Below, in pieces: positions 1 to 62,890 of a stretch of DNA of 62,890 nucleotides. Made by a program: the position numbers and the translations under genes. Source of the DNA: a virus; IMG/VR virus record IMGVR_UViG_3300047498_000007, positions 1 to 62,890 of that record, one strand, 5' to 3'. Under the pieces are notes generated by a model that did not search any database, had not been told where the DNA came from, and worked only from the letters and a program-made list of their open reading frames with translations. Numbering within the stretch: position 1 is the first letter of the stretch; every line of letters begins with the position of its first letter.

Positions 1-470
1 ACCCCGCAGAAAAGGAAACCAGATGGGAAGTGAGAGCAGAAAACTACAACCACAAAAAGGAGAAATACGATGAGTAAGTTTGATGATCTAACAATAACAG
101 AAGCAAAAGAACTAGCGGCGATGTTTAACAACATGCCAGTTAAATCTTGCAACGGAAAACATCCCATGATGGGTAAACGTTGTTTGATCCGCACCTACAG
201 CGCTGGTGTTCATATTGGCGATATTGTCCATATCGATGGCATGGAAGTTAAGTTAGAAAATGCTCTACGCCTTTGGAAATGGGAAGGTGGAGGATTGTCG
301 CTTAGCGCTGTTGCGAATGACGGTATTAAAAGCGGTCGTTTGAATAAAACAGGTGAAGTTTATCTCACCAATGTCATTGAGATGATCCCGACGACAAAAG
401 AGGCGGAGAAAACCTATGCAAAGTTTGTTGAATAGAACTCACCATAACCATAATTGTTCCAGCTCCGGCT
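1..470. repeat. terminal direct repeat, left copy (same sequence as 62421..62890)
   Basis: The window start accccgcagaaaaggaaacc... through ...taattgttccagctccggct recurs at 62421..62890. The embedded 121-aa ORFs (70..435 and 62490..62855) translate identically. Unit length is 62,420 bp. Confidence 0.95.
70..435 (+). CDS. hypothetical protein (121 aa), inside the terminal repeat
   Basis: Clean ORF with AGGAG 7 nt upstream of the ATG. No family recognised. A duplicate copy lies at 62490..62855. Confidence 0.7.
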   Translation: MSKFDDLTITEAKELAAMFNNMPVKSCNGKHPMMGKRCLIRTYSAGVHIGDIVHIDGMEVKLENALRLWKWEGGGLSLSAVANDGIKSGRLNKTGEVYLTNVIEMIPTTKEAEKTYAKFVE

Positions 471-664
471 CCGGCTCCGGCTCCGGCGACGGCTACGGCT
501 CCGGCGACGGCTACGGCTCCGGCTACGGCTCCGGCGACGGCTCCGGCTACGGCTCCGGCTACGGCTCCGGCTACGGCTCCGGCTCCGGCTCCGGCGACGG
601 CTACGGCTCCGGCGACGGCTCCGGCTACGGCGACGGCTACGGCGACGGCTCCGGCTACGGCTAA
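416..664 (+). CDS. (Gly-X)33 low-complexity protein, X = Ser/Tyr/Asp (82 aa)
   Basis: ATG at 416 with GGAG 8 nt upstream. It overlaps the upstream stop and runs on the same strand as all neighbours. The stop comes immediately after the last repeat unit. All six frames are open here, so the frame choice rests on context. Confidence 0.5.
   Translation: MQSLLNRTHHNHNCSSSGSGSGSGDGYGSGDGYGSGYGSGDGSGYGSGYGSGYGSGSGSGDGYGSGDGSGYGDGYGDGSGYG
464..661 (+). repeat. hexanucleotide microsatellite, 33 units of NNC-GGC (TCC/TAC/GAC + GGC)
   Basis: Read directly from the sequence: tccggc / tacggc / gacggc units only. The region is GC-rich relative to its flanks. Confidence 0.95.
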
Positions 665-3854: not shown

Positions 3855-4596
3855 CTTGCCAACAAAATTCTCTGAATTTACACCATTTACAAATAAACAT
3901 TTCTGGTTTGCTTGCCGCTCTCTCTGGCGGTTCTTTAGCTTTCAGAATGCGATCTTTTTTGGTTAGCATTGCCTTATAAACAACTGGTTGAAATTCAGTG
4001 CGACAACTAATCTCGTCTCTTCCGCCAGGAGTGGAGCAAACAAGATAATGCCTATCAATAACAGTGTCATAAATTTCTGATAATTTACCCATATAAATTT
4101 GTGCTTGAACAAAGAATGTATAATCCCATTCTTTGAGAGCGCCTTTATTGCCAAATTTTTCAATACACTTTTTTAAATCATTAAACTTTTTTTCATTGCA
4201 AGCTTTGGCTTCGAAAATATGCGTCTTAGTTGGAGCTTGAAGCAATCCTTTGATAATACCATCCACATGACCGCCGAACCTTCCTTCTTGAAATCCAATT
4301 TGTTCTTTTGTTACTTCATCGATATCCCATAACTGGATCCCAGAAACTAAACGAAGTCGATCCTTGATAAGCTGTTCTGTGCGATGCCCGTCTTCTATCG
4401 CGGCACATCCTTTGTATTCGATTGGTTCAGCTTTTTCAGCATGATAAAGTTGATAATAAATAAAACGTTCACATTCATGGCCGAGTGTACTTGCCCCCAG
4501 ATAATCACGTTTCGGTTTAGAATTATCTCTATCTTCTACCGCTTTACGCATAGCGACAAGAGTAGGATCTTCATCCATGTTTGGAAGTAAAACCAT
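3847..4596 (-). CDS. Cas4/RecB-like PD-(D/E)XK exonuclease with Fe-S Cys cluster
   Basis: GGHVDG (Asp), IFEAKA (E-x-K) and QAQIYM (QxxxY). One N-terminal Cys (GHEC) plus a C-terminal CKWCKFREFC. Confidence 0.8.
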   Translation of the reverse strand: MVLLPNMDEDPTLVAMRKAVEDRDNSKPKRDYLGASTLGHECERFIYYQLYHAEKAEPIEYKGCAAIEDGHRTEQLIKDRLRLVSGIQLWDIDEVTKEQIGFQEGRFGGHVDGIIKGLLQAPTKTHIFEAKACNEKKFNDLKKCIEKFGNKGALKEWDYTFFVQAQIYMGKLSEIYDTVIDRHYLVCSTPGGRDEISCRTEFQPVVYKAMLTKKDRILKAKEPPERAASKPEMFICKWCKFREFCWQDA

Positions 4597-4598
4597 GA

Positions 4599-5816
4599 TT
4601 AGCCCTTAATACAAACGACTTGTTTAAGCGTATGCACTATCTCAACTAAATCCGATTGTGCGGCCATGACAGCATCTATAGATTTATAAGCCATTGGAGT
4701 CTCATCAATTACATCTTTGTCCTTCCGGCATTCAACCCCCATGGTTGCCTGTATATGATCTTCAACAGTATATTTTTTAGCTGCTGCTGTGCGAGACATT
4801 CTGCGGCCAGCTCCATGAGAACATGAGCAAAAACTATCTTCATTTCCTTTGCCGCAAACTATATAAGACTGAACGCCCATTGAACCAGGAATAATACCCA
4901 AGTCGCCTAAACGCGCACGTACAGCACCTTTTCTCGTGAGCCATACATTTTTACCAAAATGGTGTTCTTTGCTCACATAATTGTGATGGCAATTTACTGC
5001 CATTAATGACGTTTCAAAAGGTCTACCCAATGATTTTACTATTGCTGATATAACAAGTTCCATCATGATTTCACGATTGGCCAACGCAAAACTTTGTGCC
5101 CAATGTAAAGCCTTCATATAATCAGCAAATAATTCTGAACCTTCAGGAATATACGCCAAATCCACATCAGGCAAATTAATAAACCATCGACGCATATCTT
5201 CTTTGGCTTTTTCAATAAAGTATGATCCGATTTTATTTCCAATTCCACGTGATCCGCTGTGTAACATAATCCATACATCTTGATTTTCATCGAGGCATAT
5301 TTCGATGAAATGATTACCAGTTCCAAGAGTCCCAAGATGTGCAATACAACCTTCAGAAGCACGCTCTATTTTTTCATGCTTGGTAACAATTTCGGCCAAT
5401 CCGCCAGACATAGAAGCAAATTTGCTCATTACACTTGTTGGAATATCAGTATGACGACCCTTATCGTTCGCACCGCCATTGTCTGAACGGCCATGAGGAA
5501 CTGCCATTTCAATCGAAGATCTCACTGCAAATAAATTGTCCGGTAGATCTTTTGCTTTTAATGAAGTCTTAACGGCCATCATCCCGCAACCAATGTCAAC
5601 GCCGACAGCAGCTGGAATTATTGCACCAACCGTTGGTATTACTGAACCAACTGTCGCCCCCATTCCCCAATGTACATCAGGCATTACGGCTATATGTTTA
5701 TGAACAAAAGGCATAGACGCAACATTTAATAGCTGTTGACGTGCAGCATCTTCAAGTTCTACGCCATCAATCCATGCTTTAATTGGTTTTTTATTTTCTT
5801 CTACGATAACTTGCAT
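4599..5816 (-). CDS. rtcB: RtcB-family RNA 3'-phosphate/2',3'-cyclic phosphate ligase
   Basis: All the RtcB signature blocks are present: MPDVHWGMG, VDIGCGM, GTGNHFIE, HSGSRGIGN, CHHNY, SHGAGR. Confidence 0.95.
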   Translation of the reverse strand: MQVIVEENKKPIKAWIDGVELEDAARQQLLNVASMPFVHKHIAVMPDVHWGMGATVGSVIPTVGAIIPAAVGVDIGCGMMAVKTSLKAKDLPDNLFAVRSSIEMAVPHGRSDNGGANDKGRHTDIPTSVMSKFASMSGGLAEIVTKHEKIERASEGCIAHLGTLGTGNHFIEICLDENQDVWIMLHSGSRGIGNKIGSYFIEKAKEDMRRWFINLPDVDLAYIPEGSELFADYMKALHWAQSFALANREIMMELVISAIVKSLGRPFETSLMAVNCHHNYVSKEHHFGKNVWLTRKGAVRARLGDLGIIPGSMGVQSYIVCGKGNEDSFCSCSHGAGRRMSRTAAAKKYTVEDHIQATMGVECRKDKDVIDETPMAYKSIDAVMAAQSDLVEIVHTLKQVVCIKG

Positions 5817-57480: not shown

Positions 57481-57632
57481 CCCGCAATCTATTGGCTTAT
57501 GCCGAGCAATGTGCTGATGAACGTTTAGCCCTGCAATTGAGCGACGATGTTCTATCTTATGCAGAATTGGAAGATGAACTTGACGAAGTGGAATTGAAAT
57601 TTATCAGAGAAGGGGGAATAGATTATGAGTAA
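57477..57632 (+). CDS. small acidic protein (51 aa), below the ORF-track cutoff
   Basis: Translated by hand: MTRNLLAYAEQCADERLALQLSDDVLSYAELEDELDEVELKFIREGGIDYE. ATGA overlap with the upstream gene. Confidence 0.45.
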   Translation: MTRNLLAYAEQCADERLALQLSDDVLSYAELEDELDEVELKFIREGGIDYE

Positions 57633-57963
57633 CGATAAAACATATAACGGCTGGACTAACCGCGAAACTTGGCTAACAGCCTTATGGATTGATAACGATT
57701 ATGGCCTGTATTCTTGCGTAACCGAGCAAGCAAGAGAATTGGCTGAAGATGCTGAATTAGAGGAAGAAGCCACAAGCGAAGACTATCTAATGACAATAAC
57801 TGGAAAGCTTGGATCGTTCATAAAAGATTTAATTGAAGAAATGCAACCTGAAGTCACCGGCCTATTTGCTGATTTGATCAATGGTGCATTGGCAGAAGTT
57901 GAGTACTACGAAATAGCTTCGCATTTTATTCAAACTGAAATTGAGAATAGAAAGGCAGCATAA
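57625..57963 (+). CDS. hypothetical acidic protein (112 aa)
   Basis: The N-terminal YNGWTNRETWLTALWIDNDYGLY looks like a conserved phage/plasmid motif, but I cannot name it. Confidence 0.6.
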   Translation: MSNDKTYNGWTNRETWLTALWIDNDYGLYSCVTEQARELAEDAELEEEATSEDYLMTITGKLGSFIKDLIEEMQPEVTGLFADLINGALAEVEYYEIASHFIQTEIENRKAA

Positions 57964-59493: not shown

Positions 59494-59664
59494 ATGACAG
59501 CAGAAGAACTAAAAAAATGGCGTAACCGAAAGAAACTAACACAACAAAGCGCAGCCGATCATTTTGGTATCAGCGTAGAAACATGGAGGAAATGGGAGCA
59601 AGGCGTTAATCCTATTTCTGGATTATTGGAAATGAATCTTAAATCTTATAAGAGGAAGAGATGA
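59494..59664 (+). CDS. XRE-family HTH regulator (56 aa), below the ORF-track cutoff
   Basis: Translated by hand: MTAEELKKWRNRKKLTQQSAADHFGISVETWRKWEQGVNPISGLLEMNLKSYKRKR. AAGGAAA SD. Confidence 0.65.
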   Translation: MTAEELKKWRNRKKLTQQSAADHFGISVETWRKWEQGVNPISGLLEMNLKSYKRKR

Positions 59665-59858: not shown

Positions 59859-59977
59859 ACACTCAACTCGAATTACCAATGGAAGAAAAATCAGTGGATA
59901 AAAAATAAAGCATTATTTTACGGGGTGGGCCGTGATGCTGTGACTAGAGCAATATCTAAACAATCGTGGAGGACAGT

Positions 59978-60859
59978 ATGACTTTCGACTTCAACAAGAT
60001 TTCCAATTTTCATTTAGCATCTGGATCGCACGACCAGCCTAATGAAAGAGGTGATATTTGCGTAAATGAAGCGGCAATAGTCGCGGCCGGTTTTAAGTAT
60101 AAGAAAGTTGAATCAGCAAGTGATTGTCCACCATGCTTTTCTCGTCCGATAGCTGCTTATGCAATTAGGTTGAATGACAGTATGCCTGATGATTTGAGGC
60201 AAGAATTGCTCATGCCGTTTGTTATGCGTCTGTCAGGAACGGCTGATACAAAAGAGAATGAGATAAAACGCGCTCAGTTCATGGCCCTAGAAAATTGTTG
60301 TCGCATCATGTCAGAAATGTGTATCGATGCTTTAAAGCTCCCTGATCTGGCTCAAGAATGCCGTGACGTTAAAACTCTCAAAGAAGCCGAAGATATTTGC
60401 AGAAATAAAGTAAGAAAAGCTGCTTATGCTGCTGCTGCTTATGCTGCTGCTGCTGCTGCTTATGCTGCTAATGCTGCTGCTGATGCTGATGCTGATGCTG
60501 CTGATGCTGCTGCTGCTTATGCTGCTGCTACTGCTGCTTATGCTGATGCTGCTTATGCTGCTGCTGCTTATGCTGCTAATGCTGCTGCTGATGCTGATGC
60601 TGCTGATGCTGATGCTGCTGATGCTGATGCTGCTAATGCTGATGCTGCTAATGCTGATGCTGCTTATGCTGCTTATGCTGCTGCTTATGCTGCTGATGCT
60701 GCTTATGCTGCTTATGCTGCTGATGCAAAAAGAAAGTACTTCACGATTGCCACACAGATATTGTATGAGGCTATCCTGATGGGAAACCATACGGAATTAG
60801 ATGTTTATGAGATTGTGCCAAGGCTTGAGCAAGCTAAGAAACAGAAGGTTTCAGCGTAA
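59978..60859 (+). CDS. protein with a Cys-containing N-domain and a 102-residue Ala/Asp/Tyr/Asn tract (293 aa; the ORF is open from 59966)
   Basis: ATG 59978 is preceded by GGAGGA. Complex sequence flanks the tract on both sides, and the frame is consistent with neighbouring plus-strand genes. Confidence 0.65.
   Translation: MTFDFNKISNFHLASGSHDQPNERGDICVNEAAIVAAGFKYKKVESASDCPPCFSRPIAAYAIRLNDSMPDDLRQELLMPFVMRLSGTADTKENEIKRAQFMALENCCRIMSEMCIDALKLPDLAQECRDVKTLKEAEDICRNKVRKAAYAAAAYAAAAAAYAANAAADADADAADAAAAYAAATAAYADAAYAAAAYAANAAADADAADADAADADAANADAANADAAYAAYAAAYAADAAYAAYAADAKRKYFTIATQILYEAILMGNHTELDVYEIVPRLEQAKKQKVSA
60419..60724 (+). repeat. GCT-based trinucleotide tract (70 GCT + 32 TAT/GAT/AAT/ACT codons)
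   Basis: Read directly from the sequence. Every Ala in the tract is GCT, and the interspersed codons are single-nt neighbours of each other. Confidence 0.95.
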
Positions 60860-61196: not shown

Positions 61197-61688
61197 ATGA
61201 AATTTGAAATCAAATCACGCTTTACTTCTAAAGTTTTGTTTACGGCAGAGCTTGAAGCAAAATTCGAGAGCGAACCAACGAATATACAAATGGGCGCGGC
61301 TGCTATAGCCGCTTACCTCAGTGGCGCTGACCTGCGTGGCGCTGACCTCCGTGACGCTGACCTCAGTGGCGCTAACCTCAGTGACGCTGACCTGGGAGGA
61401 GTTCCTGCGATAAAGGACATCCACAAGGTCGTCTATGAAGCAGCGTCAAAGGTAAACGCCCTAAATATGGAAACTTGGCATACTTGCGAAACGACGCATT
61501 GCCGAGCTGGATGGGCTGTAACGCTTGCGGGCGAGGCCGGAAAAGCAATGGAGTTTTGTTTAGGGACAGCGGCGGCGGCGGCTTTGATATATCTCAAGAG
61601 TGACCCAAAATTAAAGAAAATGCCGGATTTTTACGCCGACAATGAAACCGCTTTGGCTGATATGAAGAATTTGGCAGAGGCGTCATGA
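61197..61688 (+). CDS. pentapeptide-repeat protein (163 aa)
   Basis: There are six A(D/N)LXX units (AAYLS GADLR GADLR DADLS GANLS DADLG) at nt 61308..61397. A C-terminal domain carries CxxxHC. GAGGAGAA SD. Confidence 0.8.
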   Translation: MKFEIKSRFTSKVLFTAELEAKFESEPTNIQMGAAAIAAYLSGADLRGADLRDADLSGANLSDADLGGVPAIKDIHKVVYEAASKVNALNMETWHTCETTHCRAGWAVTLAGEAGKAMEFCLGTAAAAALIYLKSDPKLKKMPDFYADNETALADMKNLAEAS

Positions 61689-62152
61689 CCCAATCGAACC
61701 AGGAATTGATTGAGAAACTAAAGGCGTGTGTTGACTTCTCTCACAACATCGCCCCATCCGATTATGGGGATGAACATTTTGAAGCCCTCAAAGAACTTGC
61801 GAGGCGCGTGGTATGGCAATTGGTGGACGAGAATACCCCACAAGCAGAAGATGTTCTGGTCTGCAAAAATAATGGCTTGGGTGAAATCACAATAGCCAGT
61901 ACCCCCGACGGGGTTCGGTGGCTGAAAAACCTATACGAAATTATACCGCCAACCCACTGGATGCCACTTCCTTTTGCCCCACCTAATCATGAATGTGTAG
62001 GCTCACATGGTGTTTCCAGTGCTGAATTATTCAAGGCTCTCGGAAGCAAAGATCCTGAAAAAGACGAACGCGGTTTGAACGCTGTGATACGAAGAATGGA
62101 CATGAAAGTCGTGGACGCCCCACCCAATCCAGACGCTAAAAAGGAGGAATGA
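61685..62152 (+). CDS. DUF551-like protein (155 aa)
   Basis: The internal PPTHWMPLPFAPP signature matches that of the 54815..55138 product. Confidence 0.6.
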   Translation: MTQSNQELIEKLKACVDFSHNIAPSDYGDEHFEALKELARRVVWQLVDENTPQAEDVLVCKNNGLGEITIASTPDGVRWLKNLYEIIPPTHWMPLPFAPPNHECVGSHGVSSAELFKALGSKDPEKDERGLNAVIRRMDMKVVDAPPNPDAKKEE

Positions 62153-62421
62153 GGATGAGTGATTTAAAAAGCAATATCGAAAGACTACTTCGCAGAGAAT
62201 GGGGTGATACATCATACTCTTATTTTGCTGCGTTGCTCGCCGGGGAGGATAGCGCGAAAAATGCATTGGAAGATATTTTGTCTTTTGAATTAGAGTTTAA
62301 AATGGATGGAAATATGTGGTGCTGTCATGCCCATGATTTTATTAATTTACAGGAAAGCAATGCAGGGTTTGGTGAAAGCAAAAGAGAAGCCGCATCGGAC
62401 TATTACAGTCGATTAGATTAA
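62149..62421 (+). CDS. hypothetical protein (90 aa)
   Basis: ATGA overlap with the upstream gene. The stop abuts the start of the terminal repeat. Confidence 0.55.
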   Translation: MRMSDLKSNIERLLRREWGDTSYSYFAALLAGEDSAKNALEDILSFELEFKMDGNMWCCHAHDFINLQESNAGFGESKREAASDYYSRLD

Positions 62422-62890
62422 CCCCGCAGAAAAGGAAACCAGATGGGAAGTGAGAGCAGAAAACTACAACCACAAAAAGGAGAAATACGATGAGTAAGTT
62501 TGATGATCTAACAATAACAGAAGCAAAAGAACTAGCGGCGATGTTTAACAACATGCCAGTTAAATCTTGCAACGGAAAACATCCCATGATGGGTAAACGT
62601 TGTTTGATCCGCACCTACAGCGCTGGTGTTCATATTGGCGATATTGTCCATATCGATGGCATGGAAGTTAAGTTAGAAAATGCTCTACGCCTTTGGAAAT
62701 GGGAAGGTGGAGGATTGTCGCTTAGCGCTGTTGCGAATGACGGTATTAAAAGCGGTCGTTTGAATAAAACAGGTGAAGTTTATCTCACCAATGTCATTGA
62801 GATGATCCCGACGACAAAAGAGGCGGAGAAAACCTATGCAAAGTTTGTTGAATAGAACTCACCATAACCATAATTGTTCCAGCTCCGGCT
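62421..62890. repeat. terminal direct repeat, right copy (same sequence as 1..470)
   Basis: See the left copy. The window ends 7 nt into the microsatellite. Confidence 0.95.
62490..62855 (+). CDS. duplicate of the 70..435 ORF (a product of the terminal overlap)
   Basis: The 121-aa translation is identical. Confidence 0.7.
   Translation: MSKFDDLTITEAKELAAMFNNMPVKSCNGKHPMMGKRCLIRTYSAGVHIGDIVHIDGMEVKLENALRLWKWEGGGLSLSAVANDGIKSGRLNKTGEVYLTNVIEMIPTTKEAEKTYAKFVE

Follow-up and report, generated by a model that had tools for sequence, protein, structure and literature searches.

Why should a phage gene contain, between two stretches of ordinary coding sequence, 102 consecutive codons in which every alanine is written with the same triplet? 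Such a gene is found in the virus record IMGVR_UViG_3300047498_000007 of IMG/VR, whose whole stretch of 62,890 nucleotides was analysed and is called the window here. The record is a complete one, with an exact terminal repeat of 470 bp, and the gene sits in the early, small-ORF region of the phage. Searches of phage records, IMG/VR and JGI metagenomes gave no near-identical relative of the phage, the best matches being 78% and 69%.

The encoded protein consists of an N-domain of 147 residues, the tract of 102 residues and a C-tail of 44 residues (Table 1). A GTG at position 59966 overlaps the GGAGG Shine–Dalgarno sequence and is improbable as an alternative start. The tract spans 306 nt and uses five codons: GCT (70), GAT (15), TAT (12), AAT (4) and ACT (1). 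These are exactly the counts given in a preliminary description of this DNA, and the peptide quoted there is present. GCT accounts for 43.5% of the alanine codons in the 38 long phage ORFs, so the probability of finding GCT at 70 of 70 positions is 4.8e-26; outside the tract the same gene uses eight GCT, five GCA, four GCC and three GCG codons. Pairs of adjacent non-alanine residues do not occur in the tract, where 9.7 would be expected (0 of 5000 shuffles match this), and as non-alanine residues are never neighbours the tract is composed of (Ala)n-X units. Tyrosine-rich blocks alternate with aspartate-rich blocks along its length. Tandem Repeats Finder (TRF) gives periods of 9 and 15, and the longest exact repeat is 47 nt, located at positions 60448 and 60556 (an offset of 108 nt).

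Table 1. Positions of the gene, its parts and neighbouring features in the window.
Feature	Position (nt)	Strand	Basis
Whole gene, 293 aa plus stop	59978..60859	+	ORF list; ATG 59978 to TAA 60859
Shine–Dalgarno sequence GGAGG, 5 nt before ATG	59968..59972	+	Sequence reading
N-domain, residues 1–147, conserved	59978..60418	+	Alignments A1, A2, A3; AlphaFold
Ala/Asp/Tyr/Asn tract, residues 148–249, codon-pure, hypervariable (putative arm)	60419..60724	+	Codon counts, TRF, AlphaFold
C-terminal segment, residues 250–293, conserved	60725..60856	+	Alignment A1; AlphaFold
Open antisense frame across the tract, 152 aa	60332–60790	−	
XRE-type HTH gene	59494–59664	+	Pfam matches
Pentapeptide-repeat (Qnr/MfpA-like) gene	61197–61688		
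Gly-X hexanucleotide array	464–661		
Terminal repeat, 470 bp	1–470 and 62421–62890		
Early ORF	70–435 (= 62490–62855)	+	DUF matches
Early ORF	57625–57963	+	DUF matches
Early ORF	61685–62152	+	DUF matches

The spacing of the interrupting residues carries little further pattern. Judged against the 95% level of shuffled sequences, the power spectrum of the tract contains no significant periodicity of non-alanine, Tyr, Asp or Asp+Asn positions and no 11-residue period, and no amphipathic pattern in the tract points to a designed surface. The earlier suggestion of an ice- or surface-binding-like helix therefore finds no support. A special DNA secondary structure of the tract was also considered and rejected (z = −0.33). 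The antisense strand is open across the tract, where it encodes only Ser and Ile: GCT and ACT are read as AGC and AGT, while GAT, TAT and AAT are read as ATC, ATA and ATT, and first-position changes in the sense codons are all synonymous in this frame. Since the Ser/Ile reading is absent from homologous tracts we rejected it as a selected frame and take it to be a by-product of the NNT codons.

The gene belongs to a large family. Searching with the N-domain recovered 294 homologous proteins of 178–326 aa, and a profile search of 1.84 billion representatives returned 2514 clusters at E<=1e-3, or 324 when the limit is set at E<=1e-30. Among species-representative genomes 249 loci were identified, the best 80 of which are nearly all from Methylobacterium/Methylorubrum, with further examples from Xanthobacteraceae, Bosea, Hyphomonas and Acidisoma; an alphaproteobacterial host for the phage would fit this taxonomy. 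Members are annotated as “hypothetical protein” in every source, including the names for ten members. The N-domain is defined by the motifs GSHxFPGPxGGTCxNEAA, DCPPCFS, LNDxMPD and RLxGTAD, and residues G16, H18, G25, C28, E31, A32, A33, G38, Y41, P51, F54, S55, N66 and R74 are invariant in all three alignments (A1, A2 and A3). Within the DCPPCFS block C53 is invariant in A1 and C50 is nearly invariant; in some members C50 gives way to Met or Phe, which speaks against a His/Cys site that strictly needs all four of H18, C28, C50 and C53 as ligands.

The window protein is a member of this “DCPPCFS” family at both ends. Residues 1–147 align with other members at 50–78% identity with H18, C28, E31, C53, N66 and R74 present, and the C-terminal helix pattern (F/W)xxAxxILDEAIxxGxx is represented by YFTIATQILYEAILMGNH at residues 253–270, modelled with a pLDDT of 94. 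The C-tail has the family motif ...YFTIAtqILyEAIlmGnh..., in which L262, D263, A265, G269 and R282 (the last further downstream) are conserved in A1, and it is in frame with the N-domain in every member examined. Two viral contigs contain more than one such gene. On one of them a divergent paralogue (L005, 5593–6378, plus strand) lies 0.8 kb downstream of a family member at 4007–4756; its N-domain contains DGLCIMQ and SCACP, it has its own alanine-rich tract of GCT/GAT/CGT codons, and it shares the same C-tail (hhalign 99.3%). The other, the 61.8-kb contig IMGVR_UViG_3300047160_010625 (L012 and L015), contains two family members approximately 11 kb apart, both with complex middles.

AlphaFold models of the window protein have a pLDDT above 90 over residues 11–140 and of 94 over a C-terminal helix at residues 248–267. 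With 294 homologues and a confidently modelled core, the view that this is a real protein with a folded N-domain of about 147 aa and a conserved C-tail is well founded. Between these parts the model places three helices, at residues 134–167, 173–209 and 217–244, with pLDDT values of 53–77 and two breaks that fall within (Ala-Asp)n runs. The proposal that the tract is helical thus agrees with the prediction, and the geometry of a helical arm, taken from this low-confidence part of the model, is tentative. The Methylobacterium orthologue is modelled with higher confidence (pLDDT 90.8, pTM 0.89), its middle being predicted as three well-ordered helices. Pfam, PHROGs, NCBIfam and PADLOC contain no match for the whole protein, the N-domain, the C-tail, the Methylobacterium orthologue or a short natural member, the sole database matches being at chance level (UBM 0.11, HyoA 0.013), and a sequence profile search of the PDB gave no match. 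Nor did these searches place the protein in a known defence or anti-defence family or fold: Foldseek comparison of the window and Methylobacterium models with the PDB, and of the window model with BFVD, gave best E-values of 0.7–0.9 and no fold match.

It is the middle segment that sets family members apart. In Methylobacterium chromosomes it is a conserved, nonrepetitive segment rich in Ala, Trp and Arg, while in viral contigs and other mobile elements (phage, a TraG-carrying element, a PrimPol/VapE island) it is often a simple repeat. Low-complexity middles occur in 58 of the 175 members whose middle is at least 15 aa long, in flavours that include A/Y/D, A/N, A/L/D/R (with a period of 2), A/G/W, A/V/E and A/S/R/W/D. 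The variable region spans 0–117 aa, placing the 102 residues of the window near the upper end, and the median length of the middle is 53 aa in low-complexity and 57 aa in complex members. Homologues without the tract had been put forward beforehand as evidence against a role for it. Natural homologues with almost no tract do exist, such as P0037 (187 aa); the objection holds only in part.

The type of tract also changes repeatedly along the family tree. On a tree of 185 members, built with the middle left out, switching between low-complexity and complex middles needs at least 29 changes, compared with a mean of 48.7 after shuffling. The well-supported clade of four members around the window protein contains four different tract types, and in the closest relatives of this protein the tracts are of Arg/Trp or Asn type. 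One protein of this closest clade, P0004 (231 aa), has the middle NYSCSHYTASYVSCCYSTSYTANAAYVAELVYATYNRYSDSIAYAS, which is rich in Tyr, Ser, Cys and Thr rather than Ala and, judging by its sequence, could be a decayed tract or a tract read in another frame.

In the DNA, codon use within each of the low-complexity tracts examined is homogeneous, in contrast to the mixed codons of the sequence on either side. The set GCT/TAT/GAT is used in the window and in L102, while other tracts are built from NNT codons throughout (L005), GCC-CTC-GAC-CGC (L006, L007, L105 and L106), GCT-GGG-TGG (L009), GCG-GTG-GAG (L010), GCC/TAC/GAC (L016 and L091) or GCT-NNC hexamers (L101). To produce such codon patterns it is enough that a few seed units are amplified. 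PMC10124876 treats homogeneous codon runs as an accepted sign of unstable repeats made by slippage, and comparison of closely related gene copies is consistent with this origin. L107 and L009, from different samples, are 100% identical over approximately 560 nt of coding flanks, yet an in-frame indel of 126 nt separates their tracts. L105 and L106 have one mismatch in approximately 420 nt of the N-domain; between their tracts there is an indel of 54 nt, plus about 22 differences that all fall at codon position 2 and that appear from the aligned sequences to be the product of register shifts among GCC/GAC and CTC/CGC units. Protein pairs with flanks 97–100% identical likewise have middles of different length (32, 80 and 88 aa; 84 and 135 aa; 36 to 80 aa). 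The expectation that the repeat would expand and contract in frame is borne out by such copies, which have identical or near-identical flanks and differ by 54–126 nt. Invariance of the third codon position was examined as a general rule and discarded, the minimal changes over 16 tracts being 30, 37 and 24 at positions 1, 2 and 3.

Two limits apply to this variability. Because every unit is a multiple of three, with the C-tail always in frame, the repeat alters the arm and cannot turn the gene off. P0002 is identical in seven contigs, so the instability of the tracts does not extend to very short time scales. Part of the length differences between contigs could also be collapse of repeats from short reads, above all in near-perfect hexamer arrays.

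The composition of the tracts appears to be constrained as well. Pooled low-complexity tracts contain 57% Ala, 9.5% Asp and 8% Tyr, with only 0.4% Pro and 0.7% Gly. Proline and glycine are each one mutation away from alanine and tyrosine is two, so the near absence of the former, and the frequency of the latter, suggest that the arm is kept helix-compatible and interrupted. Interruption of the alanine runs has the further effect that long stretches of pure poly-Ala do not form. Three different codon sets encode the recurring A/Y/D flavour: GCT/TAT/GAT, GCG+GCT/TAT/GAT and GCC/TAC/GAC.

The explanation that we favour, with a probability of roughly 70%, is that the tract is a hypervariable helical arm, built by slippage, on the constant core of a cytoplasmic, all-helical accessory protein, with its variability seen between related copies of the gene. 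The conserved core, that is the N-domain (His18, Cys28 and the DCPPCFS block with Cys50 and Cys53) and the C-terminal helix, would carry the job of the family, and the middle segment would form an arm protruding between them. In the chromosomal Methylobacterium orthologues this arm would be fixed as a complex three-helix unit rich in Ala, Trp and Arg; in the window phage it would have been replaced, or overgrown, by a trinucleotide repeat of (GCT)n-NAT units that arose, and would keep changing, through replication slippage and unequal recombination. The length and surface of the arm would vary and expression would not, while selection at the protein level would keep the arm soluble and helix-compatible, its alanine runs broken by single Tyr or Asp residues with almost no Pro or Gly. 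The gene is a real accessory gene that looks ordinary in kind, with an unusually long and clean alanine helix that was probably written by slippage.

The most serious alternative is that the tract is a neutral, runaway microsatellite: an indifferent spacer reshuffled by slippage, from which selection removes only toxic or frame-breaking variants and which has no adaptive meaning. Codon purity points to a process driven by mutation, the window tract has no periodicity, some members have almost no arm, low-complexity and complex middles have similar median lengths and no partner gene is conserved, all of which speaks for such a spacer. Against it stand the composition, which is constrained beyond mutational proximity (Tyr and Trp enriched, Pro and Gly near absent, A/Y/D reached with different codons), the recurrence of the phenomenon at least 29 times in the family, and its appearance both in the divergent paralogue and in the Imm5_like family, which is not detectably related. 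We regard a neutral spacer as quite possible, if somewhat short of an even chance. It overlaps the favoured explanation, the sole difference being whether the variability is used. Natural members almost without an arm mean that the arm may be merely a tolerated spacer; under the favoured explanation the variability may instead matter for recognition of, or escape from, a partner.

A wider generalisation is that mobile elements use codon-pure Ala-X repeats as a template-free generator of diversity. Slippage would rewrite a protruding helical arm, in Ala/Tyr/Asp, Ala/Leu/Asp/Arg or Ala/Trp/Arg alphabets, on otherwise constant accessory proteins, and the arm would thereby be retuned or concealed in an arms race against host defences or rival elements; this would have evolved independently in the present family, in divergent paralogues and in Imm5-like proteins. 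We put this forward tentatively and consider it rather unlikely. If the variability is adaptive, it would represent a new template-free route by which mobile elements diversify a protein surface. In addition, a large orphan family is now defined with a confidently predicted fold that has no solved counterpart, and its natural series of arm lengths, from about 0 to about 115 residues, can be used for experiments.

Coding microsatellites as such are well known. To our knowledge, there is no description in the literature of a family in which the same internal segment has repeatedly been turned into different, fast-changing alanine repeats, especially in phages, ICE-like elements and satellites as against fixed chromosomal orthologues; our literature search found only general work on low-complexity regions. 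The nearest precedent is the class of slippage-made, codon-homogeneous coding microsatellites (Alba et al. 1999, as cited in PMC10124876), which resemble the present tracts in using one codon per residue, gaining and losing units in frame, turning over faster than their flanks and containing interrupting units derived by point mutation. The window family differs in that the same position has been converted at least 29 times into different flavours, that the protein around it is folded and helical and occurs in phages and mobile elements, and that the composition is constrained (Ala with Tyr/Asp and no Pro/Gly).

Proteins of the Imm5_like/Imm5 families (PF21805, PF14423) share a further likeness, having a helical N-terminal part followed by alanine-rich helices of the form AAxxAA(W/Y)xAA(R/D). 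L109, a proteobacterial Imm5_like protein, contains a runaway AAARAAAWDAAR tract of the same kind. Membership in this group was rejected: neither the window protein nor any of 45 family members has an Imm5_like/Imm5 Pfam match at E<=1, the Imm5_like HMM has no match at E<=0.01 in five genomes carrying the family, and hhalign of A2 against an alignment of 11 Imm5_like proteins gave a probability of 0.6% (0.1% for the N-domain alone). The N-domain motifs differ too, GSHxFPGPDGGTCINEAA and DCPPCFS in the family compared with AxxCAERVLPxFExxxPxDxRPRxAIEAAR in Imm5_like. The tracts of L109 and of the L005 paralogue therefore indicate that runaway alanine tracts occur in more than one family, with no detectable relationship between the families.

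TolA is a membrane-anchored envelope protein with a known function, whose domain II is a long, alanine-rich helical region with a defined repeat unit. Type I antifreeze proteins of fish are over 60% alanine, form a single long helix with an 11-residue Thr periodicity and are encoded by repetitive genes. Intragenic tandem repeats of E. coli tolA vary between strains (PMC3477136). The likeness to the window family lies in a helical, alanine-rich region where in-frame repeats differ in number from strain to strain and the domains on either side do not change. The window protein differs from TolA in being cytoplasmic and in having irregular units and a much greater turnover of sequence. Unlike the type I antifreeze proteins it has a tract of varying flavour with no 11-residue periodicity, it is built around a globular core that is conserved, and it is a phage protein of the cytoplasm. 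A last analogy comes from protein design. Fellouse, Wiesmann and Sidhu (2004) reportedly obtained binders with a four-amino-acid code (Tyr, Ala, Asp and Ser, from KMT codons), an alphabet said to be sufficient for specific binding surfaces. The GCT/GAT/TAT codons of the tract, together with TCC, TAC and GAC, which are among the codons of a Gly-X ORF in the same phage, make up the same Tyr/Asp/Ala/Ser alphabet. This is an analogy only, as the libraries were placed in antibody loops and not in poly-Ala helices.

The preliminary description had proposed that the tract mimics nucleic acid, an Asp-studded alanine helix imitating the DNA backbone and blocking DNA-sensing defences such as restriction. 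The tract does contain 15 Asp and zero basic residues, and its gene belongs to the early, small-ORF region, where it follows an XRE/Aca2-like HTH gene and has a pentapeptide-repeat gene two genes further on. Over 139 members, however, the variable region has net charges anywhere between −10 and +9 (median 0), many tracts being Arg-rich or neutral, and the closest relatives of the window protein have the Arg/Trp or Asn tracts already mentioned. The Asp residues have no DNA-like or helical periodicity, and no match to PADLOC models, solved folds or predicted viral folds was found. With such a range of charge, and no PDB or BFVD fold match, the family does not resemble Ocr/ArdA-like mimics, and we consider this explanation very improbable.

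We think it slightly less probable still that the tract, or its length, was made by the assembly of short reads. Simple repeats are error-prone in metagenome assemblies, and the terminal overlap of the contig ends exactly at the other, Gly-X microsatellite. The longest exact repeat in the tract, at 47 nt, is nevertheless below usual reads and large k-mers, the length of the tract leaves the conserved C-tail in frame, and hundreds of independent assemblies share this architecture, among them isolate genomes, for instance that of Bosea (L091). Least credible is template-directed hypermutation of the DGR type or a phase-variable on/off switch, as hinted at by the restriction of L105/L106 differences to codon position 2 and the invariant third base of several tracts, because the complete phage has no reverse transcriptase (RVT_1) and no second copy of the tract, variable sites use two of four possible bases, third-position invariance is not general, the apparent substitutions are plausibly explained by register shifts among 2–4 unit types, and units that are multiples of 3 (3, 6, 9 nt and so on), indels of 54 and 126 nt and a C-tail in frame in all low-complexity tracts examined do not suit a switch.

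The surroundings of the gene contain several features that are recorded here beside the favoured explanation of a slippage-built arm. The Gly-X ORF is real and belongs to the same plus-strand string of genes, beginning 1977 nt past the end of this gene once the 470-bp repeat is removed, which agrees with the distance of about 2 kb across the junction reported earlier. A pairing of the two genes was also suggested; a check for co-occurrence at 23 related mobile-element loci showed no Gly-X or pentapeptide ORF, and no neighbour is conserved among them. Across 24 mobile-element loci no neighbour family is common to more than three, and the neighbours at the Methylobacterium loci are ordinary chromosomal genes (DUF1007, histidine phosphatase, glyoxalase and MCP). 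The terminal repeat stops 6 nt inside the Gly-X hexanucleotide array; as the repeat ends there, the contig ends may be a break made in assembly at this microsatellite and not physical direct terminal repeats, the genome itself being circular or permuted.

Upstream of the gene, at a distance of 0.3 kb, the XRE-type HTH gene matches the Aca2/YdiL-like family of Pfam at 25.1 bits (cut-off 23.8) and also HTH_31; the Aca2/YdiL-like family is linked with anti-CRISPR loci. The early ORFs listed in Table 1 match only DUF6948, DUF7249 and DUF551. The pentapeptide-repeat gene lies two genes downstream. At three related loci, all from Xanthobacteraceae or uncultured alphaproteobacterial genomes, a gene for a GyrB/ParE-type topoisomerase B subunit is divergently beside the family gene or one gene from it (L041, 1777–3867; L074, 2614–4827; L095, 2644–4812; all on the minus strand). 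This adjacency, together with the pentapeptide-repeat gene of the window, may be a coincidence that reflects the synteny of one clade.
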